DNA of 64,000 bases from Octopus vulgaris (taxonomy: Eukaryota): NCBI GenBank assembly GCA_951406725.2, contig OX597842.1, positions 20,088,001-20,152,000 on the forward strand, in the 5' to 3' direction. Under the pieces are notes generated by a model that worked only from the letters and a program-made list of their open reading frames with translations, had not been told where the DNA came from and made no database searches. Positions 1 to 43,422 of this stretch are shown here, piece after piece. The translations under genes and the position numbers were made by a program. Positions within the stretch are counted from its first letter, which is position 1. Each line of letters opens with the position of its first letter.

Positions 1-178
1 CTCCAAACATCGCTTGACAACCGTTGCTGGTTTGTCTACATCCCCGTTACTTAGTGGTTCGGCAAAAGAGAACTCATAGAATAAGTACAAAGAATAAATC
101 CTGGGGTTGATTTGCTCGACTAAAGGCGGTGCTCCAGCATGGCCACAGTCAAATGACTGAAACAAGTAAAAAGAGAAA
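1..178 (+). mobile_element. 3' part of abundant tRNA-headed SINE (called family S2 here)
   Basis: Tail ...ggcggtgctccagcatggccacagtcaaatgactgaaacaagtaaaaagag, which recurs at about 17200, 51170 and 61930 (+) and 13975, 32590, 46020 and 55457 (-). Confidence 0.8.
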
Positions 179-277
179 GATAATATAACCTCCACACACA
201 CACACCTTGGTATTGACCCCCTCATCCTTTGCCCTTGTGGCAAATAAAAGAAACCCTTATATACAACTATCAACTGA

Positions 278-789
278 GTCCATTGTGAAGATGGCCCCTC
301 TACTTTCCTTCAACCAGGAAGGGCAACCAGTTTTTATCTGCTCAGGGCCCATGGCAAAAGGGATCATATAGTGGACATGTCTGAAAGGGCTGAAGACCAG
401 CAACTGCCATTTTGTCAAAACCCTAATAAACTTTATCAGGTTTCACTTGAAGAGGAAAATCAGGGTGGAGAGGTAAGTGCTGGCTTCCAAGCAGTTTGTT
501 GAAAGGTGGGTGAGAGAGGTGAGCATTACCTGAGTGAATGGGCCTTCTCTTAGAGTGTACCTGTATATTGGAGAGGAAAGACTGGGAGAGGGTATCCACC
601 CTGGTGGTCAGGGAGACCTTGGATTTACTGGGCTTTCGTAACGCGTAGCCCTTGAAAGTCCCCCCACTATCAGGGATCTTACTTTGAATTTCTTTTATTC
701 TTTGTATGACTTTTTACATGCTAAAACCCACACTGGACCCTCCCGAATGTTTTGCTTTGTGTTAGCCCTCTGTGGTCAATAAAGAAATT
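278..789 (+). mobile_element. Tx1/L1-type LINE 3' end (decayed), intronic
   Basis: Translates to ...KGLKTSNCHFVKTLINFIRFHLKRKIRVER*VLASKQFVERW, homologous by eye to the ORF2 C-terminus at 33666-34620. Ends gtgttagccctctgtggtcaataaagaaat. Paralogous copies at 2899-3411 and 62087-62598. Confidence 0.65.
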
Positions 790-809
790 ATTATAAATCA
801 TTTCCTTAC

Positions 810-1058
810 TCTTTATCTCCAAATTAATGTCTGCAGCTTTAAGGTTGTCATCATTAAATCTCCAAGTCAAACAATTCTCAGTTACGTTTCTGATCCAAAG
901 CGTGGAGGTATCTCCACTATGTGTTACTTTATAGTCAGTGCCGTTAACGCATGTTCTGTCACATTCATATTTATAATTGTGGCACTTCCAAACCACCGGT
1001 CGTATCATGTTCGGTATTGTTATCGAAAGGGTGACGTTTCCATTGAGCACAGCAATTC
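810..1058 (-). CDS. Exon: atypical Ig-like (V-type pattern) domain, module 2 of left gene
   Basis: Acceptor tttctttatttcAG (1060-1059) and donor GTAAGG (809). 249 nt, phase 1/1, open: GIAVLNGNVTLSITIPNMIRPVVWKCHNYKYECDRTCVNGTDYKVTHSGDTSTLWIRNVTENCLTWRFNDDNLKAADINLEIK. Splice sites and length are identical in 3 paralogues. Confidence 0.85.
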
Positions 1059-1509
1059 CTGAAATAAAGAAATCAGTTAAGAAGTTTGCTTCCAAATCAT
1101 ACGGTCCTGGGTTCAGTCCCACTACACAGCACCTTGGGAAAGTGTCTTCTACTACAGCATCAACCTTGTGAGTGGATTTTCTAGATGGAAATTGAAAGAA
1201 GCCCATTGTATGTATATGTGTGTGTGTGTATGTGTGAGTGTGTGCGTGTGTATGTATGACTGGCAGTGTGAAGCGGCTGACCTCCCTTGTTCGAAGGTTA
1301 TAATGGACACAGTTTGTGTGTCAAATAGCTAGCTTGAGGCGATGGCCTCTTGGAACTAATCATCGACAGCTTTAGTCTTATATCTATAGGACTGCCATAT
1401 TAATATGGCGATAACAATTAATTTCCAGTAACGCTGCCGTAATCTCTTTTAGAGAGACTTAGTAATTTTAATATTTCTATATATATATATATATATATAT
1501 AAGAGCAAC

Positions 1510-2790
1510 TTACCAAGGAATGTTATGCCGAGTCTTGCAGGGAAACGGAGCTACAGATAAATTTGAAGTAAAAACAGGAGTTCGACAGGGCTGTATCCTT
1601 ACTCCCTTTTTATTTCTATTAGTTATAGATTGGATTATGAAGGAAACTACGATTGAAAGCCAAACAAGCATTGAATGGACGGATGTGGAAGCTGTAGAAG
1701 ATCTCGACTTTGCAGATGATATAGCGCTGCTTTCATAAACATAGCCAAATGCAAAATAAAATATCAAAATTAGAAGCAATAGCTGCCAAAGTAGGATTGA
1801 AAGTCAACCTCAAATCAATAATTATGCACGTTAATGAAGTAAACATTGAATGTATTCAACTAGAAACTGGTGAACTGAAGGATGTAGCCGAGTTTATGTA
1901 TTCAGGTAGTAAGATAACGTTTTCAGGTGGCACCGACGAAGATATTAAGGTGAGAATAAGTAAGGCAAGGACCGTTTTCACCTGTTAAAGAAAGTATGGA
2001 GCGCAAGTGTAATTTCAATAAAGAACAAAATAACCTCTCGAAAGAGCTGTTCTTCACTCCTGCTCCAGAGCGTCGGCTGCGGGGTCACTCCGAAAAGCTC
2101 TATCTGTGACGATTTCATCTCAATCGAAGGAGAGGGCCCTTCTCCATCCGGGTTGCGGTTCCCTGGAATAAGCTGCCGGACGAGATAATGAAGATGCCGA
2201 CGACCGCTCGGTTCAAAGTCTCCCTTGTCCACAAATGGCCTGAACTCTTTGCATGAACACCACCCTGTACATAACTCCATGTCCCCCTACATGGCCTTGC
2301 TTTTTTGCTTTTTGAGCCCAAAAATTAACTTAACTTAAGTTAAGAATTTTTAACACTAACGTAAAAGTGGTGTTATTGTATGGGGCTGAGACATGGCAAA
2401 CAACAGTCAAGTCAAATAAGCAAATACAACTATTCATCAACAGATGCTTGCGTAGTATACTTAAAATTAGATGGCCCAAACACATAAGCAATATGGAGCT
2501 ATGGCAAAGAACAAATCAAGTTTCGATTAGGGAGCAAATATTTAAGAAAAAGTGGAAGTGGATTGGTAGCACAATTAGAAAAGACACACTAAATGTAGCA
2601 AAAAGTGTTTAAAGTGGAAACCGGTTGGATGTAAAAAGAAAGGTAGGCCTAAGAACTCCGTGGCGTAGATCAACACAAAAGGAACTAGAGAAAGGGGGAC
2701 ATTCATGGCAGAGTATAAGTACAGACGCGAAATATTATGCAACATGGAATTCAATTATGAGTGGCCAATACTCTGCGTTGGAGGGTCAAA
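1510..2790 (+). mobile_element. Decayed RTE-clade LINE (RT C-terminal half)
   Basis: GVRQGCILTPFLF, DLDFADDIALLS and VLLYGAETW motifs across broken ORFs 1520-1738, 1749-1988 and 2367-2612. Confidence 0.85.
2034..2339 (+). mobile_element. CR1/L2-group LINE 3' end nested in the RTE
   Basis: Frame reads RLRGHSEKL..RRRGPFSIRVAVPWNKLPDEIMK..FKVSL and ends in a (TTAAC)n tail. It interrupts the RTE frame between KNK and LRIFNTNVK. Second copy at about 5210-5468. Confidence 0.75.
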
Positions 2791-2814
2791 GGTAGGAAAG
2801 AAGAATATATTTAC

Positions 2815-2853
2815 CACTTTGGGTGATGTTATACTTTTGTGTCCTTGAAAAAC
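2815..2853 (-). CDS. 39-nt microexon (A-strand/linker of Ig-like module 2)
   Basis: ttttcatcttttacAG|GT TTT TCA AGG ACA CAA AAG TAT AAC ATC ACC CAA AGT G|GTaaat. Phase 1/1, encodes (S)FSRTQKYNITQS(G). Paralogue of 5656-5694. Confidence 0.75.
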
Positions 2854-2898
2854 CTGTAAAAGATGAAAACAAAAATTTTGATTTTTGGAAAATTTTGA

Positions 2899-3411
2899 AG
2901 TCCATTGTGAAGATGGCCCCTCTACTTTCCCTCAACCAGGAAGGGCAACCAGTTTTTATCTGCTCGGGGCCCATGGCAAAGGGGATCATACAGTGGACAT
3001 GTCTGAAAGGGCTGAAGACCAGCAACTGCCATTTTGTCAAAACCCTAATAAACTTTTTCAGGTTTCACTTGAAGAGGAAAATCAGGGTGGAGAGGTAAGT
3101 GCTGGCTTCCAAGCAGTTTGTTGAAAGGTGGGTGAGAGAGGTGAGCATTACCTGAGTGAATGGGCCTTCTCTCAGAGTGTACCTGTATATTGGAGAGGAA
3201 AGACTGGGAGAGGGCATCAACCCTGGTGGCCAGGGAGACCTTGGATTTTGTGGGCTTTCTTTATGTGTGGCCCTTCAAAGTCCCCCCTCTATCAGGGGTT
3301 TTACTTTGAATTTCTTTTATTCTTTGTATGACTTTTTACATGCTAAAACCCACACTGGACCCTCCCGAATGTTTTCCTTTGTGTTAGCCCTCTGTGGTTA
3401 ATAAAGAAATT
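2899..3411 (+). mobile_element. Tx1/L1-type LINE 3' end, duplicate of 278-789
   Basis: Near-identical to 278-789. ORF 2823-3098 ends INFFRFHLKRKIRVER. Confidence 0.65.
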
Positions 3412-3431
3412 ATTATAAATCATTTCCTTAC

Positions 3432-3680
3432 TCTTTATCTCCAAATAAATGTCTGCAGCTTTAAGGTTGTAATCATCAAATCTCCAAGTCGAACATTTCT
3501 CAGTTACTTTTTTGATCCAAAGCGTGGAGGTATCTCCTAAATGAGTCACTTTATAGTCACGGCCATCAGCGCATGTCCTGTCACATTCATATTTATAATT
3601 CTGGCACTTCCAAACCACCGGTCGTTTCATATCAGGTATTGTTATCGAAAGGGTGAGGTTTCTATTGAGCACAGCAGGTC
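3432..3680 (-). CDS. Exon: atypical Ig-like domain, module 1 of left gene
   Basis: AG at 3682-3681 and GTAAGG at 3431. 249 nt, phase 1/1: GPAVLNRNLTLSITIPDMKRPVVWKCQNYKYECDRTCADGRDYKVTHLGDTSTLWIKKVTEKCSTWRFDDYNLKAADIYLEIK. Confidence 0.85.
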
Positions 3681-3958
3681 CTGAAATAACGAAATCAGTT
3701 AAGAAGTTTGCTTCCAAATCACATGGTCCTGGGTTCAGTCCCACTGCAGAGCACCTCGGGAAAGTGTCTTCTACTACAGCATCAGCCTTGTGAGTGGATT
3801 TTCTAGATGGAAATTGAAAGAAGCCCATTGTATGTATATGTGTGTGTATGTATATACATACACACTTGTGTGTTTCAAAGCCTTGTGAGTGGATTTGATA
3901 GATGGAAACTGAAAGAAGCCCATTGTTTATATATATGTATATATATATATATATATGT

Positions 3959-4338
3959 AAATAGAAAATTATTATTTCTAAGTCCCTGAATGAGAAACAT
4001 TCAGTAACATTACTCGAGAGTAAAGATTATTTGCCAGCATAATATGGCAGTCCTAGTTAGGATGATTGTTACTGTTATCTAGCCCTAGGAAACACTGCCT
4101 CCAGCTGGGTATATGACACGCTATCTATGTCCTATGGGATGCTAAACTCCCTTGTTTGAAAATATAAGGATGCAGCTAGTGCGTCATATAGCCTGCTGGA
4201 GACGATATTTCCTAGGGCTAAGGAACAGTAACAATCGTCCTAACCAGGACTGCCACATTATGTTGGCAAATAATCTCTACCCTAGAGTACTGTTACTCAA
4301 TGTCTTTTGTTCAGAGATTTAGAAATAATTTTCTATTT
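3959..4338. mobile_element. Long-TIR MITE/foldback element
   Basis: Imperfect inverted arms of about 160 bp (aaatagaaaattatt...gacacgcta / tagtgcgtcatatag...aataattttctattt). Copy at about 63155-63533; related fragment at 1260-1480. Confidence 0.65.
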
Positions 4339-4555
4339 GTTAGATCAGTGACTGTGTGTCACTTTGAAAAGTATATATTTTGGACAAGAGTTTAGTGGAG
4401 TCATCTGTAGCCGAGCAGTTATTCTGTGCTGATGAAGGGAAATAACCCAGAGACCATTGGTATGCAGATAGATGATGTTTCCTAAGACTAAATTTACAGT
4501 ATCATTCGTCCTAACCAAGACTGCCACATTATGTTGGCAAATATATATATATATA

Positions 4556-5040
4556 AGTTCAGCAAAAATTTAGATTCAAATGAATATGGTACTTAATTTA
4601 GATGCACCAGAATTTTGTATGGTGTTATCCATAGAAATCCGTGGGGTGATTATAATGAAAATAAGCAACAAGAATGACTCCAGTAATTTGGTACGATCGT
4701 TTCGTACTACATCATTTTATTAAATGTTGTAAGTATTACAACAGTTTTAAAATGCTGAACACTCATCAGCCAATTATAGAGGTTTTCTGTTAATACAAAA
4801 ATTTTCATATCACGTGGCAACATTATAGAGAAGGTAGATATATAGACAAAGATGTGGATTTTAATTTTAAGAACGTATGATGTAGTGGAACAACCAAATC
4901 TTAGTACCTCATATGTTCTTAAAATTTAAATCCACATCTTTGTCTATATATCTACCTTCTCTATAATGTTGCCACTTGATTTGATAACTTTTTTATTAAT
5001 GGAAAACCTCTATAATTGGCTGATGAGTACTCAGCATCTT
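4556..5040. mobile_element. Penelope-like inverted terminal-repeat remnant
   Basis: Inverted arms about 4750-4880/4908-5040. Minus strand carries CTGATGAG...CGAAACG. Related copies at 36549-36958 and 63750-64000. Confidence 0.5.
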
Positions 5041-5630
5041 ATAGAGGGATTAGGCTATTATCAGCTCCCGGAAAAGATTTTAACAGGATACTTTTAGAGA
5101 TGATGAGGACAGCAGTAAAGAAGAAGCTGGATTTAGGAAGAACCGTTCATGTGGAGATCAAACCGCCACTCTTTGTATCATTGTAGAGCAAAGCGCAGAG
5201 TGGAATGCACTCTATCTGCGACAATTTCATCTCAATCGAAGAAGAGGGGCCTTCTCCGTCCGGGTTGCGGATCCGTGGAATAAGCTGCCGGACGAGATAG
5301 TGAAGATGCTGACGACTGCTCGGTTCAAAGTCTCCCTTGACCACAAATGGCCTGAACTCTTTGCATGAACACCACCCTGTACATAACTCCATGTCCCCCT
5401 ACATGGCCTTGCTTTTTTGCTTTTTGAGCCCAAAAATTAACTTAACTTACCTTAACTTAGCTTAACTTGGATATAGAAAGAGAGGTAGGCCTAAGAACTA
5501 GTGGCGTAGATCAACACAAAAGGAACTAGAGAAAGGGGGACATTCATGGCAGAGTATAAGTACAGAGGTGAAAAATTATGCAACATGGAATTCAATTATG
5601 AGTGGCCTATACTCCATGTTGGAGGGTCAA
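5041..5630 (+). mobile_element. Deleted RTE + CR1 composite, paralogous to 1510-2790
   Basis: RGIRLLSAPGK..EAGFRKNRSCGDQ RT motif, fused to the same CR1 3' end and RTE tail as in the first module. Confidence 0.7.
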
Positions 5631-5655
5631 ATGTAGGAAAGAAGAATATATTTAC

Positions 5656-5694
5656 CACTTTGGGTGATATTATACTTTTGTGCCCTTGACAAAT
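5656..5694 (-). CDS. 39-nt microexon completing signal peptide and Ig A-strand
   Basis: ttttcatcttttacAG|AT TTG TCA AGG GCA CAA AAG TAT AAT ATC ACC CAA AGT G|GTaaat. Encodes (Y)LSRAQKYNITQS(G) and joins 8100-8145 to 3432-3680 in frame. Confidence 0.8.
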
Positions 5695-6244
5695 CTGTAA
5701 AAGATGAAAACAAAATTTTTTGATTTTAAGATGAAATAATTCAAAACAATGTGAATAAATGAACATTACATTTCACAGTAATTTGATTGCTAAAGGATTA
5801 AAGCAGCCATATCTGTTTTATGTTCTAAGTGGCTGGGTCCAGCCCCTCACACCTACCCTACAATGTCAGTCTAAAAATAAACAATCACATCGTCAAAACT
5901 ACAAGATAACGAATGATTAATTCAAAAACCAAGTCTAAATGAGCATTACATTAAACGAAATAAATTGATTGCTAACGAGTTAAAGTAGCCATACCTGACA
6001 CAAAGATTCTACCTGTTTCGTGTTTAAACTGGTAATGGGTCAGCCTTTTACACCTGTCTTACAATGTCATTCTAAAAATGAACAGACAAGGACTGCTATG
6101 TAAAGAAGTGCTGATCTTTAACTGCGGAGGCAATCTGTGGAAGAGGTGGACCCTGGAAGGTGCAGGACAAAACTGTGGAACATGAGGGCTTTGGATGTTG
6201 AGGCTGACATGTATTGATAAGTGACTGCAACTACCAAAAAAAAA

Positions 6245-6430
6245 CTCATATTGCTCAGAAACTGCCAAAAGACATTGATGAAAACATTTGTTCTGAAGGA
6301 GTGTAAAATGTTTGGGTTCTCCTAGAAAATATTGGAAACATAAATGAAATTCCCACGTATTTCGATAAACCAGGAAACACTACAGCAGACACAGAGGGAA
6401 ACGAAGCTGTTAAAGTAAAAACATCTGAGA
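6245..6430 (+). pseudogene. pogo/Tigger-like transposase fragment
   Basis: THIAQKLPKD...ENIGNINEIPTYFDKPGNTTADTEGNEAVKVKTSE resembles the pogo IGNMDETP.YFDMP motif. Confidence 0.55.
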
Positions 6431-6449
6431 ATTTATTAAATAATGACGG

Positions 6450-7530
6450 GTTGTGGTTAAGAAAACGAAGATCATGGCAACAGCAGCCACAACAAACATC
6501 AGCATCAAGATCGATAATGAAGAGATCGAAGTGGTTGATCATTTCATCTTCCTTGGCTCCAAAAGAAATCGAGATGGTGACTGCACTCCAGAAATAAGAC
6601 GGCGGATGGATGGAAGCACTCCGTCGGTTACGACGACGATGGTTCCGGTTGATCTGATCGACGGAAAAGCCTGCTCGTGAAATTAATGTGTAAGTGGCTG
6701 AACACTCCACAGACACGTGTACCCTTAACGTAGTTCTTGGGGATATTCAGCGTGACACTGAGAGTGACAAGGCCGGCCCTTTGAAATACAGGTACAACAG
6801 AAACAGGAAGTAAGAGTGAGAGAAAGTTGTGGTGAAAGAGTACAGCAGGGATCACCACCATCCCTGCCAGAGCCTCGTGGAGCTTTAGGTGTTTTCGCTC
6901 AATAAACACTCACAACGCCCGGTCTGGGAATCGAAACCGCGATCCTACAACCGCGAGTCCGCTGCCCTAACCACTGGACCATTGCGCCTCCACAAGACGG
7001 CGGATAGTACTAGGCAGAGAGGCAATGGTCAGCATGAGCAGGGTCTGGAAGAGTAGAGACATCAGACTCGCTACCAAATGCAGATTGGTGAATGCAATTG
7101 TCTTCCCAATAGCAACATATGGATGCGAGACCTGGACACTAAAGAAAGCTGACCAGAAGAGAATTAATGCATTCAAGCTTTGGTGTTGGAGAAGACTTTT
7201 ACGGATTCCATGGACAGCGAGGCTCACTAATGGAGAAGTTCTTAAGCAGATCAGGCCGAAACTGTCACTAGAAGCTAGGATCACCAAGCGTAGATTGGCA
7301 TATTTCGGTCATATTATGCGGAGAAAATCCCTGGAGAAGGACATCATGCTTGGAATGGTCAGTGGCAAGAGAGGAAGAGGCCGACCAAGAACCCACTGGC
7401 TTGACACCATCAAGAGTGATACCAGAATGGACATAGCCAATCTGAAAGAAGCGGCCCAGGATTGAACTGACTGGAGGACACTGATCCATCGAGTGACCGA
7501 GAGTCGACTTCGACTGAGCGGATAGAGAGA
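6450..7530 (+). mobile_element. RTE (BovB-like) LINE 3' portion, split by a SINE
   Basis: KKTKIM..EVVDHFIFLGS..DCTPEIRRR continues after the SINE as ..FPIATYGCETWTLKK..YFGHIMRR..GKRGRGRP. Confidence 0.85.
6608..6993 (-). mobile_element. tRNA-headed SINE family S1, tail type A
   Basis: Head gtggaggcgcaaTGGTCCAGTGG..GGTTTCGATTCC (A/B boxes). 12-bp TSD AAGACGGCGGAT at 6596-6607 and 6994-7005. Second copy at about 59607-59991. Confidence 0.85.
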
Positions 7531-8099
7531 TAGTGGTTTTGAAAGATAGTGGGTGATTCTCATACACAGTACCAAGATTAGTGTTGTATGGGGTGGGTGA
7601 TGGGTGTGAGGGCTCACTGTTAATTAACCAGGGTGGGGTATAGGGAATGTTTTGGGACCTGAGATTCTGTAAATAAGTTGTTAATGAGGCAGATAATTTA
7701 TAAAGTTAATCCAAACATGAAAGCACAAAAAAAACACAACAACACGAGGACATGGAACAAATATAGTATTATTGGATGCTCAGGAAAGAAGGAGGGTTTA
7801 ACGTTTCGAGCGGAGCTCTTCGTCGGAAACATATGAGAAGGAAAGATCCAGAGAAGGGAAGACAGAGAATTTATAAGTTGGATTGTGGTGGAAAATCATG
7901 AATTTTCGAAAATTTTCTTGCATAAAATGCATCATTTCTAAAGCTGTGGTGAAAACTAAATTGGGAAAATCCCTACCAAAACAAAGAAAATCCTCCTTAT
8001 GTGAGTGACCCCATTCCAGACCCCTGTGCACCTGAGTAAGTTTGCCTTAACAAAAATAAGTTATGGAAAGAAATTAAATAAAATATAAATAAAACTTAC

Positions 8100-8145
8100 A
8101 GACAAATGCTGCAAACAATAAGCAGAACAAGATCCATTTAGCCAT
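8100..8145 (-). CDS. First coding exon: signal peptide MAKWILFCLLFAAFV
   Basis: attttttcAG|ATC ATG GCT AAA TGG ATC TTG TTC TGC TTA TTG TTT GCA GCA TTT GTC T|GTAAGT. Phase-1 donor; basic N-region followed by a hydrophobic core. Confidence 0.8.
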
Positions 8146-8339
8146 GATCTGAAAAAATAATTTTGAAAAGCTGCAAAATAACAAAGTTTATAGCGCAGGG
8201 TCCGAGGCTAGTCAGGCTGAGAAAAACAAACAGTCACAATATCATCAGTCACTCTTTAATAGATTTGTGGTCGAGCCTGTGGCATTGGAGATCTTATTCT
8301 TAACTATTTCGAATACTACAGAACGCTGTACAGTAGAGA

Positions 8340-9614: not shown

Positions 9615-11098
9615 ACCAACTGGGAAATACAAACAACGAAAAGAACTTAGTTTCTGAAAGAAAAAAATAAAAGATATTTTTAGAATTTTACTGAAAATGT
9701 ACTGAATTTTTTAAAAATTCAAAAAGTAAAAAGGTTATGAGGGGTTATATGGGGTACTTAAACGAAAATTCCACCAAAAATCAAATTTTCAAACCAATTT
9801 GTTTTAACAGCATAAATGCTTTTATGGGGACAAAAATATTGAAAAACATGAATACATGTTAGAGCGAGGAAGAAACAAGAAAGGTGATTGTGGGATGTGT
9901 TAGAAACAACAGGCAGATCTCCCTTAAATCACACACCTTCCTTTACCCATAACTTTCTGACAAATGGATATTAATGGATATATCGGAATTTGATGTGAAA
10001 AAGTTTTCCGAGGGTGGAGTGAAAAGTTTTGGAAAATTCACATCAGTTGGCTTTATTTCCTCATAACTTTTGGAAAAATGGATATTTCTTTAGTGGAATT
10101 TTCTACAAATATCATTCGGATTGTGAAGGTGATGATTGAAAAACCATACATGTTAGAACCAACTTGGAAATACAAGCAAGAAAAGGAACTTAGTTTCTCT
10201 ACATAAGCTGAAATATAAAATTAAAAAACTATATTTTTGAATATTTCACTGGAAATGTACTGAATTTCGTTTAAATTCCAAAAAGTTAGAAAAGGTTATG
10301 AGGGGTCATATGGGGTTCTTAAACTAGAATTCCACCAAAAATCAAATTTTCAAACCAATTTGTTTTAATAGCATAAATGTTTTTATGGGGACGGCACATA
10401 AAAAGCACCATCCGATCGTGGCCGTTTGCCAGCCTCCCCTGGCACCTGTGCCGGTGACATGTAAAAAGCACCCACTACACTCATGGAGTGGTTGGTGTTA
10501 GGAAGGGCATCCAGCCGTAGAAACATTGCCAGATCAGACTGGGTCTGGTGCAGCCTTCTGGCTTCCCAGAGCCCAGTTGAACCGTCCAACCCATGCTAGC
10601 ATGGAAAGCGGACGCTAAACGATGATGATGATGATGAATACATGTTAGAACCAACTGGGAAATACAAGCAAGAAAAGGAACTTAGTTTCTGTACATAAGC
10701 TGAAATATAAAATTAAAAAACTATATTTTTGAATATTTCACTGAAAATGTGCTGAATTTATTTTTAAATTCCAAAAAGTTAAAAAAGGTTATGAGGGGTC
10801 ATATGGGGTACTTAAACCAGAATTCCACCAAAAATCAAATTTTAAAACCAATTTGTTTTAATAGCATAAATGTTTTTATGGGGATAAAAATATTGAAATA
10901 CAAGCAAGAAAAGGCACTTAGTTTCTCTACATAAGCTGAAATACAGAATTAAAAAACTATATTTTTGAATATTTCACTGAAAATGTACTGAATTTTTTTT
11001 GAATTCCAAAAAGCTAAAAAAGGTTATGAGGTGTCATATGGGGTACTTAAACCAGAATTCCACCAAAAATCAAATTTTCAAACCAATTTGTTTTTAAT
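9615..11098. repeat. Locally reiterated ~200-240 bp AT-rich unit (4 copies)
   Basis: gaaatacaagcaagaaaaggaacttagtttct...aaccaatttgttttaa at about 9615, 10155, 10650 and 10895. In addition, 9810-10135 recurs at 13500-13830. Confidence 0.7.
10395..10636 (+). mobile_element. SINE-like/RTE-tail element family S3 ending in (GAT)n
   Basis: aaaagcacccactacac..ggaagggcatccagc..ccatgctagcatggaaagcggacg..(gat)n. Other copies: 15790-16270 (-), 48413-48620 (+), 53443-53745 (-), 58143-58520 (-). Confidence 0.75.
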
Positions 11099-22496: not shown

Positions 22497-22711
22497 TGTG
22501 GTGTGGTGATGAGGGAGTGTGACAGAGAGTGAGGGAGCGGAAGTGGGTCTTGCAGGTCTCATGCGCCGGCGGAAGAGAACGACGCCAAGACGACAAGACG
22601 CTAGCAAGTTGGCTCAAGGCGAATCCGGCTTCATCTCTACAGGTAAGACCAAATTACACTTCTAATTCTTTTCCTTGTTCTGTTACGCTCCTTTTCACCA
22701 CATCTATCACA
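22497..22711 (+). repeat. 5' LTR (215 bp)
   Basis: tgtggtgtggtgatgagg...catctatcaca; matches the 3' LTR apart from three indels. Confidence 0.92.
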
Positions 22712-22723
22712 AGCTATTTCGGC
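22712..22723 (+). promoter_or_regulatory. Non-canonical primer-binding site, complementary to tRNA-Phe nt 1-12
   Basis: AGCTATTTCGGC directly abuts the LTR. Its reverse complement GCCGAAATAGCT is the 5' end of metazoan tRNA-Phe(GAA) as I recall it from human/Drosophila. There is no TGG start. Confidence 0.75.
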
Positions 22724-22764
22724 AAAATAATCACTCGGTTTCGTGAAAATAAAAAATAAAAATT

Positions 22765-23520
22765 ATGCAGACTGCTATGATTTCACGCGACCCTATAACA
22801 CCGTTTTGCGGCGACACCGACGTGGTCGCTTGGTTGAGGAGGGTGAAGTTGGTGGCGAAGCTACACGGCATAGCTGACCTGGCTAGTTTTATGCCGTTGT
22901 ATTTGGATGGCCCGGCGTTGGCGTTATATCTGGAGATGGAGGAAGCGGACCAACGCAGCGCGGACGAGGTGGAGATCCGACTTATGGAGGCCTTCGCGGA
23001 AGGAATGTTCGAAGCGTACACTCGACTGGGTAGGATGAGGTGGACAGGACAGCAGGTGGACGTGTTCGCCGGCGAGCTTAGAAGGTTGGCAAAACTTGCG
23101 GGATATGAGGGAGAGTCGCTAGAACGCACGGTCAGGTTAGCGTTCGTGACCGGCTTTCCCGACATCATGTCGGTCGAGCTACAGAAGCTCCCGAACGTGC
23201 GGTCGATGCCGATGGCCGAGATTATATCGCGGGCACGTGTACTGGTGTCGTGCAGCAGGTCGACGTCGGTAGCAGCGACTGCAACGTCGAAAAGTGGCCC
23301 AGCTAGGAGCAACGGAGAGGGGCTGGGGAAAGAACGTGTGCGGTCGTTTAAGGGACAGTGTTTCCGGTGCCAGGGCCCACACATGGTCCGTGACTGCGCG
23401 TCGCCCAAGCCCGAGGTGATTTGCTACCGGTGCCGAGAGCCGGGGCATGTGGCCAGCGAGTGTCTGCGGGGAAACGGACCGCGGGAGACTACTGCGCCGG
23501 TAGTTGTCCCTTTGGATTAG
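22765..23520 (+). CDS. gag: Gag with two CCHC zinc knuckles
   Basis: 251-aa ORF containing CFRCQGPHMVRDC and CYRCREPGHVASEC. Confidence 0.9.
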   Translation: MQTAMISRDPITPFCGDTDVVAWLRRVKLVAKLHGIADLASFMPLYLDGPALALYLEMEEADQRSADEVEIRLMEAFAEGMFEAYTRLGRMRWTGQQVDVFAGELRRLAKLAGYEGESLERTVRLAFVTGFPDIMSVELQKLPNVRSMPMAEIISRARVLVSCSRSTSVAATATSKSGPARSNGEGLGKERVRSFKGQCFRCQGPHMVRDCASPKPEVICYRCREPGHVASECLRGNGPRETTAPVVVPLD

Positions 23521-26379
23521 TAGCGGCGCGTTTCTCATCGTTACCTGTGGTCGACATTCTGGTGAAGGGGAAGATGTCGCGAGCCCTGGTGGACACGGGC
23601 TGTACGACGACCCTGATGACCACAGAAGTGGCAGAGACGTGGAGTGGAGGAAGCAGTGTCAGGGCAGTCGACGGAAGAGAAGTGCACTGCGAAGGGGTTA
23701 CGGATGCGCAGATCGTGGTGCAGGGACTGCAGCTGACGTTGCGAGCGATTGTGGTCGGTCACTTGGTGGACGAGATCGACGTGGTGATGGGGATGGATGC
23801 GATCACCCGTCTGGGAGGTGTTACCGTCAACGAGGCTGGCGTAACGTTTGGGCTAGCAGGGAAGCCGTGTAGGGCGACACCACGCACCGACGACGACCGT
23901 GAGGAAATGGATGCGGCGCACACCATTGAAGACCAGGATTTTCGGGCTGTCTTTGATGGCGAGAGGTGGACAGTGGAGTGGCACTGGAAGGGAGAGCCCC
24001 GATGTTAAAGAACAAAGTGGGCTGCTATCAGCATACTCTAAAAGGAGATGCCAGAAGTGAGTTCGAGGGGAGGTGGAGCGGTGGATTAAGGAGGGCATAC
24101 TGATCCCCTGGGAAAAAGAAGAGAGCGGAGTCCTGCCACTGATGGCGGTGATACAGCCCACAAAGCGTAAGGTCAGGCCAGTGCTCGACTTCCGAGAGCT
24201 GAATGACCACGTGTCGTGTCATACAGGCGGCGAGGCCACGGATGTCTGCGGAGACACCTTGCGAGAGTGGAGGCAGACGGCGGGGGCCTCCACGATTGTC
24301 GATTTGAAGTCGGCATACCTTCAGGTTCATGTGGCTGAGAAACTATGGAGGTACCAGCTCGTCAGGTATAGGGGCCGGACGTACTGTCTGACCAGGTTGG
24401 GATTCGGGCTGAATTCAGATCCGAAGATTATGGCAACAATTCTCAAGGCCGTCCTGGGGAAGGTGGACAGAGTAAAAAGGGCCACCAATTCATACATCGA
24501 CGACATTCTGGTGGATGAAACCGTGATACCAGCAACGGAGGTCATAGGCCACCTGAAGAGTTTTGGACTGATCGCCAAGCCGCCAGAGGCTATGGAGGGA
24601 GGTGCTGCACTGGGCCTCAAGCTATGGAGAGACAAAGCCGGCGCCTTGGTGTTCCGGCGAGGGAATGAGATCCCTGAACTGGGCGCCAGCATGAGTAGAC
24701 GGGAGCTGTTCTCTGTGTGTGGGAAGCTGGTGGGACACTACCCGATTGCAGGCTGGCTCCGGACAGCATGCAGCTTCATCAAGAGACGAGCCGAAGGAGT
24801 GAAGTGGAATGACAAAGTGGGGGAGAGGACGATCGACATGATGCAGGAAGTCCTGGTCAGAGTAAGAGCAGAGGACCCGGTGAGGGGCAGCTGGTACGTT
24901 CCCAAATCAAAGAGCGGGATCGTATGGTGTGACGCCAGTAGCATCGCAATAGGGATTGTCTTGGAAGTGGGAGGTGTCACGGTGGAAGATGCAGCCTGGC
25001 TCAGGAAGATGGATGACTGCAGTCACATCAACGTGGCGGAGTTGGAAGCCGTGCTGAAGGGGGTGAACCTAGCCTTGAAGTGGGGGTTGCACACCATAGA
25101 AATCAGGACTGATTCAGCCACTGTACTTGGTTGGGCGATGGCAGTCATCACCGATGAGCGGAGGGTGCGGACCAAAGGGGCTGCAGAGATGCTGGTAAAG
25201 CGTCGATTGGGGATACTGCGTGAACTGACCACTGAGTTCAATCTGAAGCTGAGCGTGATCTTTGTGCCTTCCGAGAAGAACAGGGCAGACGTCCTGACCA
25301 GGGTTAAGCGAGCCTGGTTGCAAGTGCCAGAGGACGCGAAGCAGGATCTAGCTGCAGTATGCCGTCTGAGCGACTCGGAGTTACGGAGACTACACACCAT
25401 GCATCACATGGGTGTGGACAGGACGTTGTTCCTGGCCAGAAAAGTCGACTCCGACGTAACAAGACAGAGCGTGCGGAGAGTGGTTAGCAGTTGCGACAGG
25501 TGCCAGTCCATCGACCCTGCTCCGGTCATGCATGAAGCGGGAAGTATTCCAGTGGACCAGGAATGGAGACGACTGGCGGTGGACATAACACACTACCGGC
25601 AGGGGACATACCTCTCAATGGTTGACTGCGGACCGGGGCGGTTCGCCATATGGAGGGAGATGAGGTCAGGAACCGCAGAAGAAATTGCGAAAGTGCTGAA
25701 CGAGATATTCCTGGAACGAGGCCCCGTGGATGAACTGCTTCTGGACAACGGCACTGCATTTCGCTCGGAGGCGCTGAGAGAAATGCTTGATGAGTGGAAG
25801 GTCAACCGCTTCTTCAGGGCGGCATACCGGCCAAGTGGAAACGGGGTGGTGGAAAGGCATCATCGTACCATCAAGGCCATGGCTGAGAGGGGTCACATTT
25901 CACCAGTCGAGGCCGTGTTTTGGTACAACATGTCGCCAAGATCAGGACAGGCCGAGGAGTCGGTGCCACACAGGGCAATATTCAGGTACGAGTGGAGACA
26001 TCCGTGTACTACATCAATGCGACCCGGGGCAGAGGAAGAGCACGCCTTCGTGCAGGTCGGGGAGGAAGTCTGGGTGAAACCCCCGAACGCACGGTGTACA
26101 TCGCAATGGGGAAAGGGGACAATAACCTCCGTAAATTCAAAGAACAACATCTCGGTAGATGGTATGCCACGCCACGTTTTGGACATACGGAGGATTGTCC
26201 ATGCCCCGGAGGATGGGACAAGCAACAGTGGGCAAGACGATAACAACAGACAGGATGACGAGGTCGGCAGCAACACGCCAGAAACAAGTCCTAGGGTCGC
26301 ACTGCGACTACAGAGGGAGCGGCACCCTCCTCCCTGGTTGGCTGACTACGAAACCAGTTTCAGGTGCGGGAGCGAGTGA
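23508..26379 (+). CDS. pol: Pol (protease, RT, RNase H, DDE integrase), with two 1-nt frameshifts near 24000 and 24070
   Basis: ALVDTGC; VDLKSAY, LGFGL, YIDDIL; WCDAS, HINVAEL, RTDS, NRADVL; H..HH..CDRC, AVDI, LDNG, NGVVER. In the -1 frame relative to gag, with the heptamer C CCT TTG at 23508-23514. Confidence 0.9.
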
Positions 26380-33268: not shown

Positions 33269-33646
33269 TTATTTGCTGCTAGTGTATTTGGTGACGGCCT
33301 TGGTACCCTCAGAGACGGCGTGTTTGGCCAACTCACCAGGAAGGAGAAGACGGACAGCAGTCTGCACCTCACGGCTACTGATGGTCGAACGTTTGTTGTA
33401 GTGAGCCAAGCGGCTGGATTCAGAAGCTATTCTTTCGAACAGATCGTTGACAAAACTGTTCATGATGGACATAGCTTTGCTGGAGATGCCAGTGTCCGGG
33501 TGGACTTGCTTCATCACTTTGTAGATGTAGATGGAGTAACTTTCCTTCCTCTTCTTCTTACGTTTCTTGTCCCCGTCAGGGCGAGAGGTCTTGGCCTTGG
33601 AGGCCTTCTTGGCTCCTTTCGAAGCAGTTGCTGGTGCTGGTGGCAT
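33269..33646 (-). CDS. H2B: Histone H2B (125 aa, intact ORF; promoter lost)
   Basis: [65 protein letters not shown]. Intronless, with a stem-loop downstream. Confidence 0.95.
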
Positions 33647-33665
33647 AATGTCACTTGCGAAAGCT

Positions 33666-34620
33666 ATTTCTTTATTATCCATAAGGATTAACACAGATGG
33701 GGACAATACAATGGTTTGGGGTCAAAACATGGAACTTTTTACAATGAAACCGGATGAGTTATGTACAGTGGTGTTATAATGAAATCGAAAAACAAACAAC
33801 AAGAAAGGACAATGAAGATAAAAGAACAGGGTAGCCGACCCCACGAGCCCTGTTATTTCAGCAGAGACTTTTGGTAAGTGATCATGCAGGGCCTTTCACA
33901 CCCAGCATTCGTGCTACATGCGTCCATCTTTTTTTGAATACAGACTTAGTCAGACACCTTTTCTCCAGCTCCACTTTTTACTTCAGATGGAATTTGAAGA
34001 AGTTTGTTAGGTCGGTGCCAGAGATCATGGTGTCTGACATTAAACCTTTCACTCTTGTCTTCCATATAACCTCTTTCGCAACTGCTACTGTCACGAGAAA
34101 GCAATGCTTACCTTCGTTCGTCATGAAACCAGGTGGGTCAATTTTAAGGATTGACTCAGACGACAGCTGTACTCTTCCCTCGTCCGACAACAGGTGTTCG
34201 GCATAAACCCACACTTCCGAAATCTCCGGACATTGAACGATGGCGTGCAGGACTGTTTCCACGTCCTGTCCGGCATTGCCCGAGTTGCGGAAGCGTACGA
34301 GAGCCTTTCGGCACTCCGAATACCACATATTTGATTTCAGTCTGCGACGAAACCAGGTTTCTCTACCACCAAAACTGGCAAAGCTGGGGAATGTTTGTCT
34401 TGCGAGCGGAGACCACACCCGTTCACCTTCCAGGTAGAGCCAAAGATGCCTGAGCCTCAGCGCATGTCTGCGCATCAACAGCCAAGGCATCCCTAACCCA
34501 CCCTTTAACGGTTGTTGACAACAGATAGAACGTCTCACAAGAGGTTTGGAGCCTTTCCACAAAAAGCGGAAGATTTGCCTCTCCAACTTGTTTACCCACG
34601 AATCCGGACAGGGGACGACG
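33666..34620 (-). mobile_element. 5'-truncated Tx1/L1-type LINE
   Basis: [43 protein letters not shown] (post-RT and zinc-binding region, CxxC apparently deleted). 3' UTR ends aataaagaaat about 20 nt upstream of the H2B ATG. Confidence 0.85.
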
Positions 34621-34894
34621 TAAGGGAAATTATGCCCAACGTGTCGGTGCCGGAGCCCCAGTCTACTTGGCCGCTGTAATGGAATATTTGGCTGCTGAGG
34701 TGTTGGAATTGGCAGGAAATGCTGCCAGAGATAACAAGAAATCGAGAATCATTCCCCGTCACTTGCAGTTGGCCATCCGTAACGACGAAGAATTGAACAA
34801 ACTTTTGTCCGGAGTGACCATCGCCCAGGGTGGTGTTCTTCCCAACATTCAGGCTGTTCTTCTGCCCAAGAAAACCCAGAAGGCTTCTAAGTAA
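34619..34894 (+). pseudogene. H2A: Histone H2A lacking the first ~35 codons
   Basis: [74 protein letters not shown]. The upstream sequence is LINE. Confidence 0.92.
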
Positions 34895-36440: not shown

Positions 36441-38026
36441 CTTTATGTATACATATATATATATATATTATATGTACATGTAGAGGTAGGTACGTACATA
36501 TGTTTTATTTTATTTATTAATATATTATATATATATGTATATATACATAAGTTCAGCAAAAATTTAGATTCAAATGAATATGGTACTTATGCACCAGAAT
36601 TTTGTATGGTGTTATCCATAAAAATTTGCGGGGTGATTATAATCAAAAATAAGCAACAAGAATGACTCTGGTAATTTGGTACAATTGTTTCGCACTACAA
36701 CATTCTATTAAAAGTGGTTGGACTTCACCACCTCATATGTTCTTAAAATTTAAATCCACATCTTTGTATATCTACCTTCGCTATAATGTTGCCACTTGAT
36801 TTGAAAGCTTTTGTATTAATGGAAAACCTATATAATTGGCTGATGAGCACTCAGCATCTTAAATCTGTTGAAATACTTACAGCATTTAATAAAATGATGT
36901 AGTGCAAAGCACTTGTACCACATTACCGGAGTCATTCTTGTTGCTTATTTTGATTATATATATATGTGGAGGCGCAATGGCCTAGTGGACTCGCAGGATC
37001 GCGGTTTCGATTCCCAGACCGGGCGTTGTGAGTGTTTATTGAGCAAAAACACCTAAAAGCTCCACGAGGCTCTTGCAGGGGTGGGGGGTGATCCCTGCTG
37101 TACTCTTTCTCCCACTCTTCTGTCGGCCTGCTCGCTTAGCCAGCGGGGTGGCGTCCTTCGAAGGCTAAAACAATGCGAACACATTGTGACCAGCGATATG
37201 TAACTACATCTGATGGTTTGGTCGGTCACGTGATCACATATACACATATATATCTATATATATAGAGAGAGAGTTTACGAAAATAACCAAAAGACGAAGA
37301 CAGGTGGTGTACAAAACAAACAGTTGTATTAGTATAATGCTTAGGAATAGAAAAAGTCTTTTACGTTTCGAGCCTACGCTCTTCTACAGAAAAAACAAGG
37401 AGGGAAAAAGATGTGTGTAGTGGCTAACGATCTATCATGGGGACGGCCATATATATATACATACATACATACTTTTATTAAAGCTGCAAATTTATCACAA
37501 AACTGTTAATCTGAGTGTCAGGTTTGCATTCAAGAGACAGGTGTGATGGAAACATTTCATTCCAACTGTCCAACAGACAAGAACATGAAACTCTGAGAAA
37601 CAGTTTTGTAATAATTGGACAAACATTAATAGAATTTTTTATTCATTCAGAAATTATCTTAAATGGAATATATATATGAATATTATGAAAGAACAGCTTT
37701 TATTAAAAATATCAGAATTGATGAGGATATATAAAAATATAGTGTTAGTAAGTTGTTATAACATGCTGTTATATCTTCTTTATCATCTGGATATATTTAT
37801 TGTTATATAAGATATTCCTTTCAACAAATGACTTTTGATATTGATACAGTCACTCTTCTCTATGATGATAAAGATATCTGTAGTTAATTGTCTTTTTTCA
37901 GAGAAGGATATACCACAGAATCAGTTACATGGTTTCTCTTCCATATCAATGTGTGTCTGTGTTTATCTAAGAGATTTATTTGAGAGAACCATTCACCACA
38001 AATATCACAATGACATGGTTTCTCTC

Positions 38027-38713
38027 CTAATGAATGAGTCTGTGAGTGGTCAAGTGATCTATTTCAGAGAATGATTCACCACAGGTGTCACAATGATGTG
38101 ACTTCACCCCTGAATGAACACCTTTGTGTCTACTTAAATGTCCCTTTTGAGTGAATGATTTACTGCAGATATCACAGTGGTAAGGTTTCTCACCTGTATG
38201 GATAAATCTGTGAGTGGATAAGTCACCACTTTGAGAGAATGATTTATCACAGATATCACATTGATATGGCTTTTCACCTGTATGAGTACGTTTATGTACA
38301 ATTACACCACTTTTGTGAGTGAATGATTTACCACAGATATCACACTGAAATGGTTTCTCTCCTGTATGGATAACCTTGTGAGCAGCTAAGTTACCATCTC
38401 GAGAGAATGATTTACCACAGATATCACACTGAAATGGTTTCTCTCCTGTATGAATACGTTTATGTACAGTTACAGCACTTCTTCGAGCAAATGTTTTACT
38501 GCAGATATCACACTGATATGGTTTCTCCCCTGTGTTAGTAAGTCTGTGTGTATCCAAGTTAAATTTCATGGAGAATGATTTACCACAGATATCACAGTGA
38601 TATGGTTTCTCTCCTGTATGAGTAAGTTTGTGAGTAGCTATGTAACTCTTTAGAGAGAATGATTTACCACAGATATCACAGTCGTATACAGATTTTCCTC
38701 TTTCTTTTGGCAT
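38027..38713 (-). CDS. C2H2 zinc-finger protein, 8 fingers (paralogue A)
   Basis: ATG at 38713 (MPKERGK), with CDICGKSF..H..H TGEKP repeats. Finger 2 has H>N. Likely acceptor near 39128. Confidence 0.85.
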   Translation of the reverse strand: MPKERGKSVYDCDICGKSFSLKSYIATHKLTHTGEKPYHCDICGKSFSMKFNLDTHRLTNTGEKPYQCDICSKTFARRSAVTVHKRIHTGEKPFQCDICGKSFSRDGNLAAHKVIHTGEKPFQCDICGKSFTHKSGVIVHKRTHTGEKPYQCDICDKSFSQSGDLSTHRFIHTGEKPYHCDICSKSFTQKGHLSRHKGVHSGVKSHHCDTCGESFSEIDHLTTHRLIH

Positions 38714-40789
38714 CTCTGCAGCTAAAACTAACAAAACTCCAAGATTCTCACACAATTCCTCTTTCTGTAATTTTTTTCTTCAACAAAATGGTCTGGAAAT
38801 TTCATTTCTTCTTGTTTCTATATTTTATTCCTAACAAATGTTACAACTGCCATATTTTTATCAAATATAAGCTTTGCTGATATCTTAAGATGTTGCAAAT
38901 GTCTTTGTAAATTTATCCAAGTTTATTCAGAATCCAAATTTAGGTTTTACCCATTTCAGAGTGAATCCAAGAAATTTCACCAATAATGTCACTCAGAAGA
39001 AATATTTTACTGAAATTCACAGTTAATTTACATAAACAGGGTTCTTATATCCAGTTCTGTGTAACATCGTCTTCAAAATATGATAAATATTGATGACGCT
39101 TCTGCAGTAAATTTCCTCTGATATTCTGAAATAAGAGAGAAACAACAGTTTAACACAGAGTGTAGCTTTGGTTATGACAAAGGCTTGGTGTTCATTTATA
39201 TACGACATTTACTGCTACAATGATAAATCTCATTTAAGAAACAGATTGGGTTTATTTACATTTCTGAAGAGAAAAAGGGATCTTTTCGGTTTGACCGGCA
39301 GTTTTTTCTAGTGGTGTCATATGAAATTGTCACCCATAATTATGACCCTAGTATCAATCTATTGCATTTCAATCTGTTTTAGGGTTAGGAGTGGGGGGAA
39401 GGGTAATTTTCTTTTTTTTTCCACAAATGTAAATAAACCCAATCTATTTCTTAAACGAGGGACATATTCATACTGCCTTTAGGCAGTACAAAAACAACAA
39501 AAAAGTGGAAGGTGCAGTTATGACAAAAGAAAAGCAGGACAAAAACGATGCATGCAAATGGGTTGGCTGGAGGTAAATCTAGATGGAAAAGCATGATAAA
39601 TTTATGAGAACCCGCTGGGACATTAATATATATATAATTATAATAAAGGGTTATTTGCAACAAGTTGCTTAAACCACATACCGAAAATATTAGAAATAGC
39701 AGCCAAATAGGCTACTATTACTATTACTACAAAAATAAGTCTCCACAAACAACAGTATTTGCAACCCAAACAACAGTATTTGCAACCCGTATATGGTAAA
39801 AGGAATGAAGACAACGAAATCACACAGTCTACTTTATATATATATATATACACATGAGCAAAATACCCCCTCCTCCCGGCCGTCCAATGGAATGTGCTGA
39901 GTTGTCAAACATTTAAACCAAATTTTCTCAAGATAACTTGTCCGACCGCTCCATAGGCCTCCCCTTTGAGAAACACTGATTTAACCTAAATTAGGGACAC
40001 CAGCAAAAGAAGAAATAAAGATAGACTTTTTTTCTATTCCAAAGAAAAACGATTTTATTCACAAAAATATGCAACCGAAGAGTTTAAAGTACCAGTAATT
40101 ATAAGGCTGTTGACTGGGAGAACACAAACATGGTTTAAACAGTAAGCTTGGCAGGAAAGAAACGTGCCTTTAAGCAGGACAAAAACAACAAAAAATGGAA
40201 GGTACAGTTATGTACAGGTTGACGGAAGAAAACCAGGACAAAAACGGCTTTATTGATCGCATTCTCACCTGGAATATATTATTGTAATTTTTTCTCACCT
40301 GGAAACGATTTTTGTAATTTTTTCAAAGACTAATACACGCCCTGATACAGTCGGTATCTACAAATCAAATTTAAGTGCAATCGGATGGAGGATGCCTGAA
40401 ATCCAAGAAGACACACAGACAGAACGGATTTTATATAAGAGATTATGAAAAACAGCTTTTATTAAAAATATCAGAATGGTAGATATTGATGAGTATAAAT
40501 AAAAAATATAGTGTTTTGTTATAACATGCTGTTATATCTCCTTTATCAGCTGGATATATTTATTGTTATATAAGATATTCCTTTCAACAAATGACTTTTG
40601 ATATTGATACAGTCACTCTTCTCTATGATGAGAAATATATCTGTAGTTAATTGTCTTTTTTCAGAGAAGGATATACCACAGAATCAGTTAGATGGTTTCT
40701 CTTCTATATCAATGTGTGTCTGTGTTTATCTAAGAGATTTATTTGAGAGAACCATTCACCACAGATATCACAATGACATGGTTTCTCTC

Positions 40790-42901: not shown

Positions 42902-43422
42902 CTCTGCAGCTAAAACTAACAAAACTCCAAGATTCTCACACAATTCCTCTTTCTGTAATTTTTTTCTTCAACAAAATGGTCTGGAAATGTCCTTTCTTCT
43001 TGTTTCTATATTTTATTCCTAACAAATGTTACAACTGCCATATTTTTATCAAATATAAGCTTTGCTGATATCTTCAGATGTTGCAAATGCCTTTGTAAAT
43101 TCATCCAAGTTTATTCGGAATACAAATTTAGATTTTACCCATTTCAGAGTGAATCCAAGAAATTTCACCAATAATGTCACCCAGAAGAAATATTTTACTG
43201 TAATTCACAGTTAATTTACATAAACAGGGTTCTTATATCCAGTTCTGTGTAACATCATCTTCAAAATATGATAAACATTGATGACGCTTCTGCAGTAAAA
43301 TTCCTCTAATGCCAATGTCCTCTGATATTCTGAAATAATAGAGAAACAACAGTTTAAGACAGAGTGTAGCTTTGGTTATGACAAAGGCTTGGGGTTCATT
43401 TATATACAACATTTATTGCCAC

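Follow-up and report, generated by a model that had tools for sequence, protein, structure and literature searches.

What is encoded, in short dispersed pieces, at the left end of a 64,000-nucleotide (nt) stretch of the Octopus vulgaris genome (contig OX597842.1, positions 20,088,001 to 20,152,000; hereafter the window), and what might its product do? The original prediction, drawn from the letters alone, placed the exons of one gene (gene A) at positions 810 to 8148 and a paralogue (gene B) at the other end, and described both as members of a hidden family of secreted or glycosylphosphatidylinositol (GPI)-linked proteins with non-canonical immunoglobulin (Ig)-like domains. Search matches and a structural model now support a tandem family that is restricted to one lineage and encodes small surface proteins, predicted to have an Ig fold and with cysteines outside the canonical positions. 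We propose that it is a young octopod family, amplified from frame-compatible exon cassettes and encoding predicted Ig-fold surface glycoproteins; the anatomy and fold described below are held with high confidence. As for function, by analogy with known clusters there is about an even chance that these proteins would form a diversified panel of receptors binding non-self (microbes or parasites), together with shed decoys, in the manner of mammalian CEACAMs and independently evolved.

The five exons predicted for gene A lie on the minus strand in the order signal, linker, Ig1, linker, Ig2 (Table 1). Each is bounded by an AG acceptor and a GT donor, and they join in phase 1 and without a stop into a frame of 208 codons, as had been proposed; the signal peptide was called by eye. 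The layout is a signal exon, any number of cassettes made of a 39-nt linker and a 249-nt Ig exon, and a tail exon, with phase 1 throughout, so that the gain, loss or skipping of any cassette leaves the reading frame intact. As a chance control, the minus strand of the whole 64 kb was scanned for stop-free, phase-1 segments of 249 nt with AG..GT ends and a pyrimidine-rich tract; only three exist, and these are Ig1, Ig2 and the Ig exon of gene B. Transposon-derived or chance reading frames were rejected on the basis of this control and of the spliced joints given below. Gene A reaches past 8148, because an upstream exon lies beyond it that matches the sequence preceding the start Met in four database models (P0004, P0010, P0015 and P0016). 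Partial copies of this exon at 10156-10197, 10648-10692 and 10895-10926 are possibly alternative 5' exons. The second cassette was gained via a junction at ~2890, whose two flanks have different counterparts (2899-4805 matches 62086-64000, and 2625-2885 matches 5467-5727), the pattern expected from unequal crossing-over fusing two tandem genes. The product would be a type-I membrane protein with one or two Ig domains.

Table 1. Exons and rearrangement junction of genes A and B, with a possible alternative last exon (window coordinates).
Feature	Position	Strand	Remarks
Upstream exon, gene A, likely 5' untranslated	9653-9577	minus	77 nt, AG..GT splice sites
Signal-peptide exon, gene A	8148-8100	minus	ATG at 8145, hydrophobic core, phase 1 end
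39-nt cassette (linker) exon 1	5694-5656	minus	encodes signal-peptide end and A strand of Ig domain
249-nt Ig-like exon 1 (Ig1)	3680-3432	minus	strands A' to G
Duplication/deletion junction	2885-2899	minus	post-Ig intron fused ~31 nt upstream of cassette exon 2 acceptor
39-nt cassette (linker) exon 2	2853-2815	minus	4 differences from cassette exon 1
249-nt Ig-like exon 2 (Ig2)	1058-810	minus	three N-glycosylation sequons
Ig-like exon, gene B (upstream paralogue; IgB)	62867-62619	minus	249 nt, AG..GT; signal and linker exons beyond window
Last exon, gene B, transmembrane-type	61494-61361	minus	premature TGA at 61399-61397, hydrophobic C-terminus
Possible alternative last exon, without hydrophobic stretch	43211-43329	minus	19 kb downstream of gene B Ig exon

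The exon structure of the family is supported by spliced contigs, which are partly paralogue-derived. The contigs come from four runs of three studies that are likely to be RNA (no run is on record as such), were taken at 85% likeness to the window, and gave 15 listed joints in addition to 58 more. Joints 5694/8100 (signal to linker 1) and 3679/5655 (linker 1 to Ig1), both with CT..AC ends, occur in all four runs. Two of the junctions singled out by the original prediction, 8100>5694 and 5656>3680, are thereby accounted for; those of the two-domain form, 3432>2853 and 2815>1058, were not seen among the 15 joints listed. In two runs, 0.53 of the 31-mers sampled from 780-1080 were present.

The family had been thought hidden, and in this respect the prediction did not hold: its members are already deposited in RefSeq and GenBank as uncharacterised proteins of three Octopus species and Argonauta. 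The O. vulgaris model P0015 equals the window signal, linker and Ig1 letter for letter, its domain being identical to Ig1, and its histone H2B part matches 33646-33338 at 100%. Protein searches returned 15, 9 and 9 proteins and a further search 41 representatives; those with a name are, apart from one repeat protein of the abalone Haliotis rufescens, uncharacterised and come from O. vulgaris, O. sinensis, O. bimaculoides and Argonauta hians. Thirteen O. sinensis loci share one 21.3-Mb contig and five O. bimaculoides loci one 12.0-Mb contig, and relatives whose second Ig domain is of a different kind map elsewhere, as far as their contigs are given. Strong matches are confined to Octopus, Argonauta and unnamed records. 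The abalone relative (LOC124119024) is weak, with a summed profile match of E 2e-12 and a per-domain HHalign probability of 31% (25% identity over 59 columns), and unnamed mollusc clusters score 0.90-0.92 by features; the domain type is probably older than octopods and the cluster younger. No squid or cuttlefish protein is among the named matches, which is not evidence of absence, as the word-seeded searches are insensitive and several representatives are unnamed. Pfam gives no Ig match on single domains, and for multi-domain members its best family is I-set, by summed score only. An assignment to XLF (Pfam E 0.04, below the cut-off) and a PDB sequence match to a haemagglutinin chain (E 0.65-0.96, chance) were rejected.

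In the literature searched, no paper was found whose title or opening abstract describes the octopus cluster (subscription papers lie mostly outside this coverage), nor any description of a diversified Ig receptor family in cephalopods. Six family locus identifiers appear in the main text of no paper searched, and those supplements of the octopus brain atlas (PMC9712504) that were covered do not contain them either. The family is an annotated but apparently unstudied octopod cluster of the Ig superfamily (IgSF), with a distinct cysteine pattern and modular exons.

An AlphaFold model of the Ig domain, built on a 34-sequence alignment, is all-beta, its pLDDT (predicted local distance difference test) score being 94.9, and the domain is predicted to be a Greek-key Ig beta-sandwich with strands A/A', B, C, C', D, E, F and G. 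Foldseek, the check proposed at the outset, agrees: it gives 163 matches at E<=0.001, and every entry listed by Foldseek or by VIA is an Ig domain, of the V and I types. The best structural match is KIRREL3 Ig5 (Z 11.0, root-mean-square deviation (rmsd) 2.0, 86 residues aligned), with many ties, V domains among them. DSSP finds only isolated bridges near 45-47 (the C'' region) and the B-to-F spacing is 55 residues; the domain reads as a short V/I frame lacking a clear C'' strand. The language-model neighbours of a one-domain paralogue are Thy-1 (0.93), V-set proteins (0.91) and, as a lead only, CD48 (0.88); shuffled proteins reached 0.9 in 4-10 of 100 Atlas searches. A two-domain relative from Argonauta, P0045, was modelled from a 7-sequence alignment (pLDDT 82.0) as two Ig domains and a helix. 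It matches the ectodomains of butyrophilin, CD200R, nectin and the B7 family (CD200RLa: Z 12.9, rmsd 3.4, 164 aligned), and the model suggests a V+C ancestor for the family.

Residue conservation was counted over 65 domains, after P0044 (bacterial), P0048, P0049, P0051, P0054 and P0056-P0060 had been dropped as repeat-summed noise; P0055 was also left out of the domain tree and the salt-bridge counts. The core Trp of strand C (W32) is present in 64 of the 65 and Leu62 of strand E in 59. PMC9546547 names eight V-frame residues; mapped on to these by strand order and motifs, an assignment of our own, the octopus domains retain the Trp and the Leu (Trp41 and Leu89 of that paper), have hydrophobic residues at both cysteine positions and Trp in place of Tyr, and carry the Gly in 26/64 domains. 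The V-type pattern first read from the letters is borne out in part.

The replacement of the canonical B- and F-strand cysteines, which form the Cys23-Cys104 disulfide of V-set domains, is confirmed family-wide: positions 21 and 76 hold Ile, Thr, Val or Ala and mostly Phe, respectively, with Cys at neither in any of the 65 domains. Ile21 and Phe76 are predicted to pack round Trp32 in place of the B-F disulfide. Four other cysteines, originally called invariant, are so in the three window copies; across the family only C41 (64/65) and C45 (63/65) come close, C34 and C71 being found in 41 and 40 domains. The latter two largely travel together (both present in 38, both absent in 22, discordant in 5). 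C41-C45 would close the C' hairpin, and C34-C71 would tie the EF loop to where strand C ends, at the site of the canonical V-frame salt-bridge Asp. Two positions beyond the core Trp, V domains have a residue that sits beside the EF-loop Asp, and because of this adjacency C34-C71 is plausible as a disulfide replacing a polar contact. A supported sister clade of 13 domains carries Asn34 and Asp71, with Lys or Arg, the partner of Asp in the canonical salt bridge, at position 50 in six and a different cysteine pair in the FG hairpin in nine. Lys or Arg at 50 is found in none of the 40 Cys71 domains; the window clade has D50/C71/W74 (W74 in 63/65), and neither the canonical Arg75-Asp98 salt bridge nor the Tyr102 corner is found in it. 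The combination of Asn34/Asp71 with the FG-hairpin pair, in P0043, P0063-P0067, P0028, P0030, P0031 and P0050, is a third predicted disulfide pattern in the same domain.

Inspection of the tail exons modifies the proposed mode of attachment. The gene B exon starting at 61494, taken at first for a GPI-signal-like exon, is indeed a hydrophobic last exon, but one homologous to the transmembrane exon of P0004, P0006, P0008 and P0015 and cut by a TGA that replaces the paralogues' Gly codon. Past this TGA, 11 further codons in the old frame match the paralogues' cytoplasmic tail, and intact homologous transmembrane tails are found in P0004, P0006 and P0015. A purpose-built GPI exon was rejected because of this homology. 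A stop at the very residue where gene B ends is also present in the O. vulgaris model P0016, whose Ig domain is not the same. By eye, the truncated C-terminus (S-G-S, a 7-residue spacer and a 16-residue hydrophobic end with one Glu, hydropathy 2.6) could outline a putative GPI signal, and we rate it slightly better than even that the nonsense codon turned a transmembrane anchor into one. Window positions 12-1257 align with 61801-63066 at 91.5%, and because of this colinearity the tail exon of gene A extrapolates to ~295 bp before base 1, close to the ~300 bp first estimated. Gene A most likely ends in an intact transmembrane tail, as P0015 does, with a full helix and a short basic tail of ~7 residues; a secreted or GPI-linked product is not borne out for this gene, and the different, GPI-type tail exon belongs mainly to other paralogues (P0017, P0021-P0024, P0026, P0084 and P0093, among many). 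Family tails take three forms: transmembrane, GPI-type and truncated-transmembrane. A possible alternative last exon (Table 1) matches that of O. sinensis LOC115225115 isoform X4 at 87.8% and has a phase-compatible acceptor; its use would give an anchorless form. With tails of ~7 residues and no evident signalling module, the proteins would bind, trap, be shed, or signal via a partner. In the transmembrane tails of P0004, P0006, P0008, P0011 and P0015, G-Y-x-x-hydrophobic is kept directly after the helix, which we take to resemble an endocytic or lysosomal sorting motif, though nearer the membrane than usual. A second partial copy of the alternative last exon lies at 39121-39026.

Among the three Ig exons of the window, non-synonymous divergence is 1.8-3.1 times that of the flanking introns (Fisher p 0.0013, 0.063 and 0.00006 for the three pairs), and Ig1 and IgB are separated by ~15 non-synonymous and <1 synonymous changes, a marginal excess (p 0.047). 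Sites that vary are grouped by copy (35 runs vs 49.4 expected, p 0.0002); 2 sites separate Ig1 from IgB over the first 143 exon bases, and IgB then diverges at 221-230. In a set of 20 young domains drawn from two species, the four-gamete test fails for 244 of 351 informative site pairs, a count that recurrent mutation could swell. The copies are mosaics, and we infer that unequal crossing-over and gene conversion keep reshuffling the surface loops. The divergence pattern fits diversifying selection, conversion or relaxation; it is compatible with recognition and makes no choice among immune, self/non-self and neural roles.

The remainder of the window holds histone, zinc-finger and repetitive sequence. 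A divergent histone pair occupies 33272-34891, with an intact H2B on the minus strand (33646-33272, own frame and stop) and, on the plus strand, an H2A (~34620-34891) that lacks its 5' part and is abutted by a minus-strand retrotransposon-like fragment with no Pfam match. This fragment is presumably L1/Tx1-like, and the histone-inserted element could be target-specific. C2H2 zinc-finger frames, themselves duplicated, lie on the minus strand within 37900-42900 (38779-38030, 42484-40793 and 42825-42424). H2B or zinc-finger pieces are fused to Ig genes in the O. vulgaris models P0004, P0015 and P0069, and a repeated unit of histone, zinc-finger and Ig genes is suggested. A histone-Ig fusion protein, as P0015 would have it, was judged an annotation artefact, the H2B having its own intact frame and stop 24 kb away. 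A GC-rich element resembling a long terminal repeat retrotransposon, with an aspartyl-protease match, spans ~22700-26300, and a DDE transposase fragment (PF13843, E 1.7e-16) lies at 54099-54641. A repeat of 173-183 bp forms head-to-tail arrays at 49181-51000 and 55671-57921 and also occurs singly just upstream of the acceptor of every Ig exon (1078-1217 and 3700-3839).

We favour a panel of receptors for non-self because the family is clustered, copy-labile and mosaic, with mixed anchors and minimal tails, like the CEACAMs and the snail PTC2 Ig genes. Several observations weigh against this. The run contigs carry other letters at 8109 and 8111, at full depth in all four runs, and at several Ig1 sites as well; the signal therefore comes largely from paralogues or alleles and speaks for splicing in the family, not for expression of this copy. 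In the two pairs that involve Ig2, the ratio of non-synonymous to synonymous divergence (dN/dS) is 0.95 and 1.18, and the synonymous proportion (pS) is 0.11-0.12 vs 0.04-0.05 in the intron; such raised synonymous divergence of Ig2 fits positive selection no better than it fits relaxed constraint or a conversion event that brought in an older exon, and the selection comparison comprises three sequences only and several tests. The GPI call on gene B was made by eye, and the cysteine covariation rests on few clades or events in the tree, five of the 65 domains keeping one of the pair. Finally, the family has histone and zinc-finger genes as neighbours, in a region prone to duplication, and its amplification may be passive.

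The alternative that survives best, and one that we still regard as unlikely, is a self-identity or adhesion code, in which like-to-like or matched-pair binding of the kind shown by Hydractinia Alr or arthropod Dscam proteins, combinatorial splicing and cell- or individual-specific sets would serve nerve wiring or self-recognition in skin. All cassettes are phase 1, and 26 O. sinensis isoform models at two loci mix several signal exons, 10 domains with the four-cysteine pattern, and transmembrane, GPI-type or other tails. These models may be real or chimeric: over near-identical tandem paralogues they may reflect mis-mapped short reads, and the same annotation fuses H2B into P0015. A Dscam-type alternative use of Ig1 and Ig2 is likewise hinted at by joint 1057/5655, again with CT..AC ends, which takes linker 1 directly to Ig2 in two of the four runs (against four of four for linker 1 to Ig1), and by P0015, which runs from linker 1 through Ig1 to the tail, but paralogue artefacts are possible and the joint may derive from a one-domain paralogue. 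Adhesion molecules (KIRREL3, nectin-3, Dpr1 and sDscam) are among the structural neighbours of the domain, and the Alr genes are a clustered family without canonical cysteines and with variant-specific homophilic binding (PMC9546547). Against such a code, the repertoire amounts to tens of domains, not thousands, and copy number in the young clade is labile between close species, which is less like a wiring code.

Passive amplification, in which one or a few functional ancestral Ig genes were co-duplicated with histone and zinc-finger genes while extra copies, the second cassette and the truncated tail drift or decay, we consider improbable. It would account for a dN/dS of ~1 in two of the three pairs, for the nonsense codon in the gene B tail, for a second cassette that retains ~31 nt of its original acceptor region and whose junctions are not among the joints listed, for H2B sequence upstream of Ig genes in two O. 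vulgaris models (P0015 and P0069) and for the broken H2A nearby. Decay is, however, hard to reconcile with three Ig exons that have taken 15-33 substitutions yet keep their full length, their splice sites, an open frame and all four cysteines, with spliced family transcripts, or with the retention of the family in three Octopus species and Argonauta; the tail stop, shared with P0016, has persisted through duplication or is polymorphic. Lower still stands an octopus counterpart of Sgp-1, the small Thy-1-like glycoprotein reportedly purified from squid: an abundant GPI-anchored neural or glial Ig protein that would act in rafts or modulate adhesion and whose diversity would be incidental. One-domain paralogues with GPI-type tails (P0021-P0024) score 0.93 with Thy-1 clusters, which speaks for it. 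Against it, shuffled proteins reach 0.9 in 4-10 of 100 Atlas searches, no squid or cuttlefish protein is among the named matches (some matches of one search being unnamed), and gene A is likely transmembrane.

The cluster offers a concrete candidate for recognition in the octopus, whether immune or of self and non-self, one that is invisible to Pfam per domain and so missed in gene-family surveys. It also presents an Ig domain in one clade of which a salt-bridge position apparently became a predicted disulfide, and a single nonsense codon that possibly switched a transmembrane anchor to GPI, paralleling primate CEACAMs. A more far-reaching proposal, to which we attach little probability, is a molecular identity system in which signal exons, skippable Ig cassettes and switchable tails would be spliced, and reshuffled by conversion, into cell or individual codes read by variant-specific binding. 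Were it true, cephalopods would have arrived independently at a solution to set beside Dscam, protocadherins and Alr. The suckers of an octopus do not grasp its own skin, and such a system would be a candidate for this sparing, and perhaps the family behind the squid Thy-1-like glycoprotein of 1988. The interest of the cluster is limited in that cysteine-less Ig clusters are already known (Alr, CEACAM) and the genes are already annotated as models.

Among known systems, Thy-1/CD90 resembles several octopus paralogues in its small single Ig domain, signal peptide, N-glycans and GPI-type tail, and is their top language-model match. In vertebrates, however, Thy-1 is encoded by one gene copy and has the canonical disulfide, and no Pfam, PDB-sequence or database match to it was found, the likeness being the language-model similarity of 0.93 only. 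Squid Sgp-1, reportedly described by Williams et al. in 1988, is said to be GPI-anchored, neural and ~84 residues long, without the standard disulfide. The dispersed octopod relatives P0045, P0047, P0035 and P0018, which consist of the domain, a second Ig domain and a hydrophobic tail, recall B7, butyrophilin, CD200R and nectin; for the P0045 model, Z is 12-13 against such ectodomains at 8-18% sequence identity, so only the fold is shared, and unlike these receptors the clustered octopus genes repeat the first domain, the second having been lost. The abalone protein LOC124119024 has five repeats with CxxxC and a D-x-G-x-W F strand, with a weak per-domain link. The Alr genes of Hydractinia are a clustered invertebrate IgSF family (PMC9546547); their V- and I-set domains have no B/F cysteines, escape Pfam and carry novel disulfides, as is seen or, for the disulfides, predicted in the octopus. 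They differ in combining V, I and FN3-like domains, with an Arg-Asp salt bridge in 26/29 first domains (PMC9546547); the octopus family has no FN3, keeps the Trp, exchanges Asp for Cys in its young clade and shows no detected homology to them. The Alr ectodomain of V, I-set and FN3-like units with six invariant cysteines is absent from the octopus architectures, which are repeated V-like domains, or V plus a second Ig, and a tail.

In CEACAMs the N domain has no B-F disulfide, and chains of CEACAM1 and CEACAM6 are among the structural matches of the octopus domain (Z 10.2 and 9.8); the similarity is one of fold only, as no sequence match to CEACAM was found among PDB chains at E<=10. Two further differences are that the octopus V-like domain is itself tandemly repeated, with CxxxC and C34/C71, and that no long tails with immunoreceptor tyrosine-based inhibitory or activation motifs (ITIM/ITAM) were seen in the window clade. 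CEACAMs form a tandem, species-specific birth-and-death Ig cluster with transmembrane, GPI and secreted forms and gene conversion of the binding domain, as the octopus genes appear to do, and their GPI anchors are believed to have arisen repeatedly through stop codons in transmembrane exons (PMC2832619). A molluscan comparison is provided by the snail resistance cluster PTC2 of Biomphalaria, which holds six signal peptide-Ig-transmembrane (SP-Ig-TM) genes (PMC13712769); likened by architecture, the octopus family shares with this parasite-resistance cluster the plan of a mollusc signal peptide-Ig-transmembrane protein.

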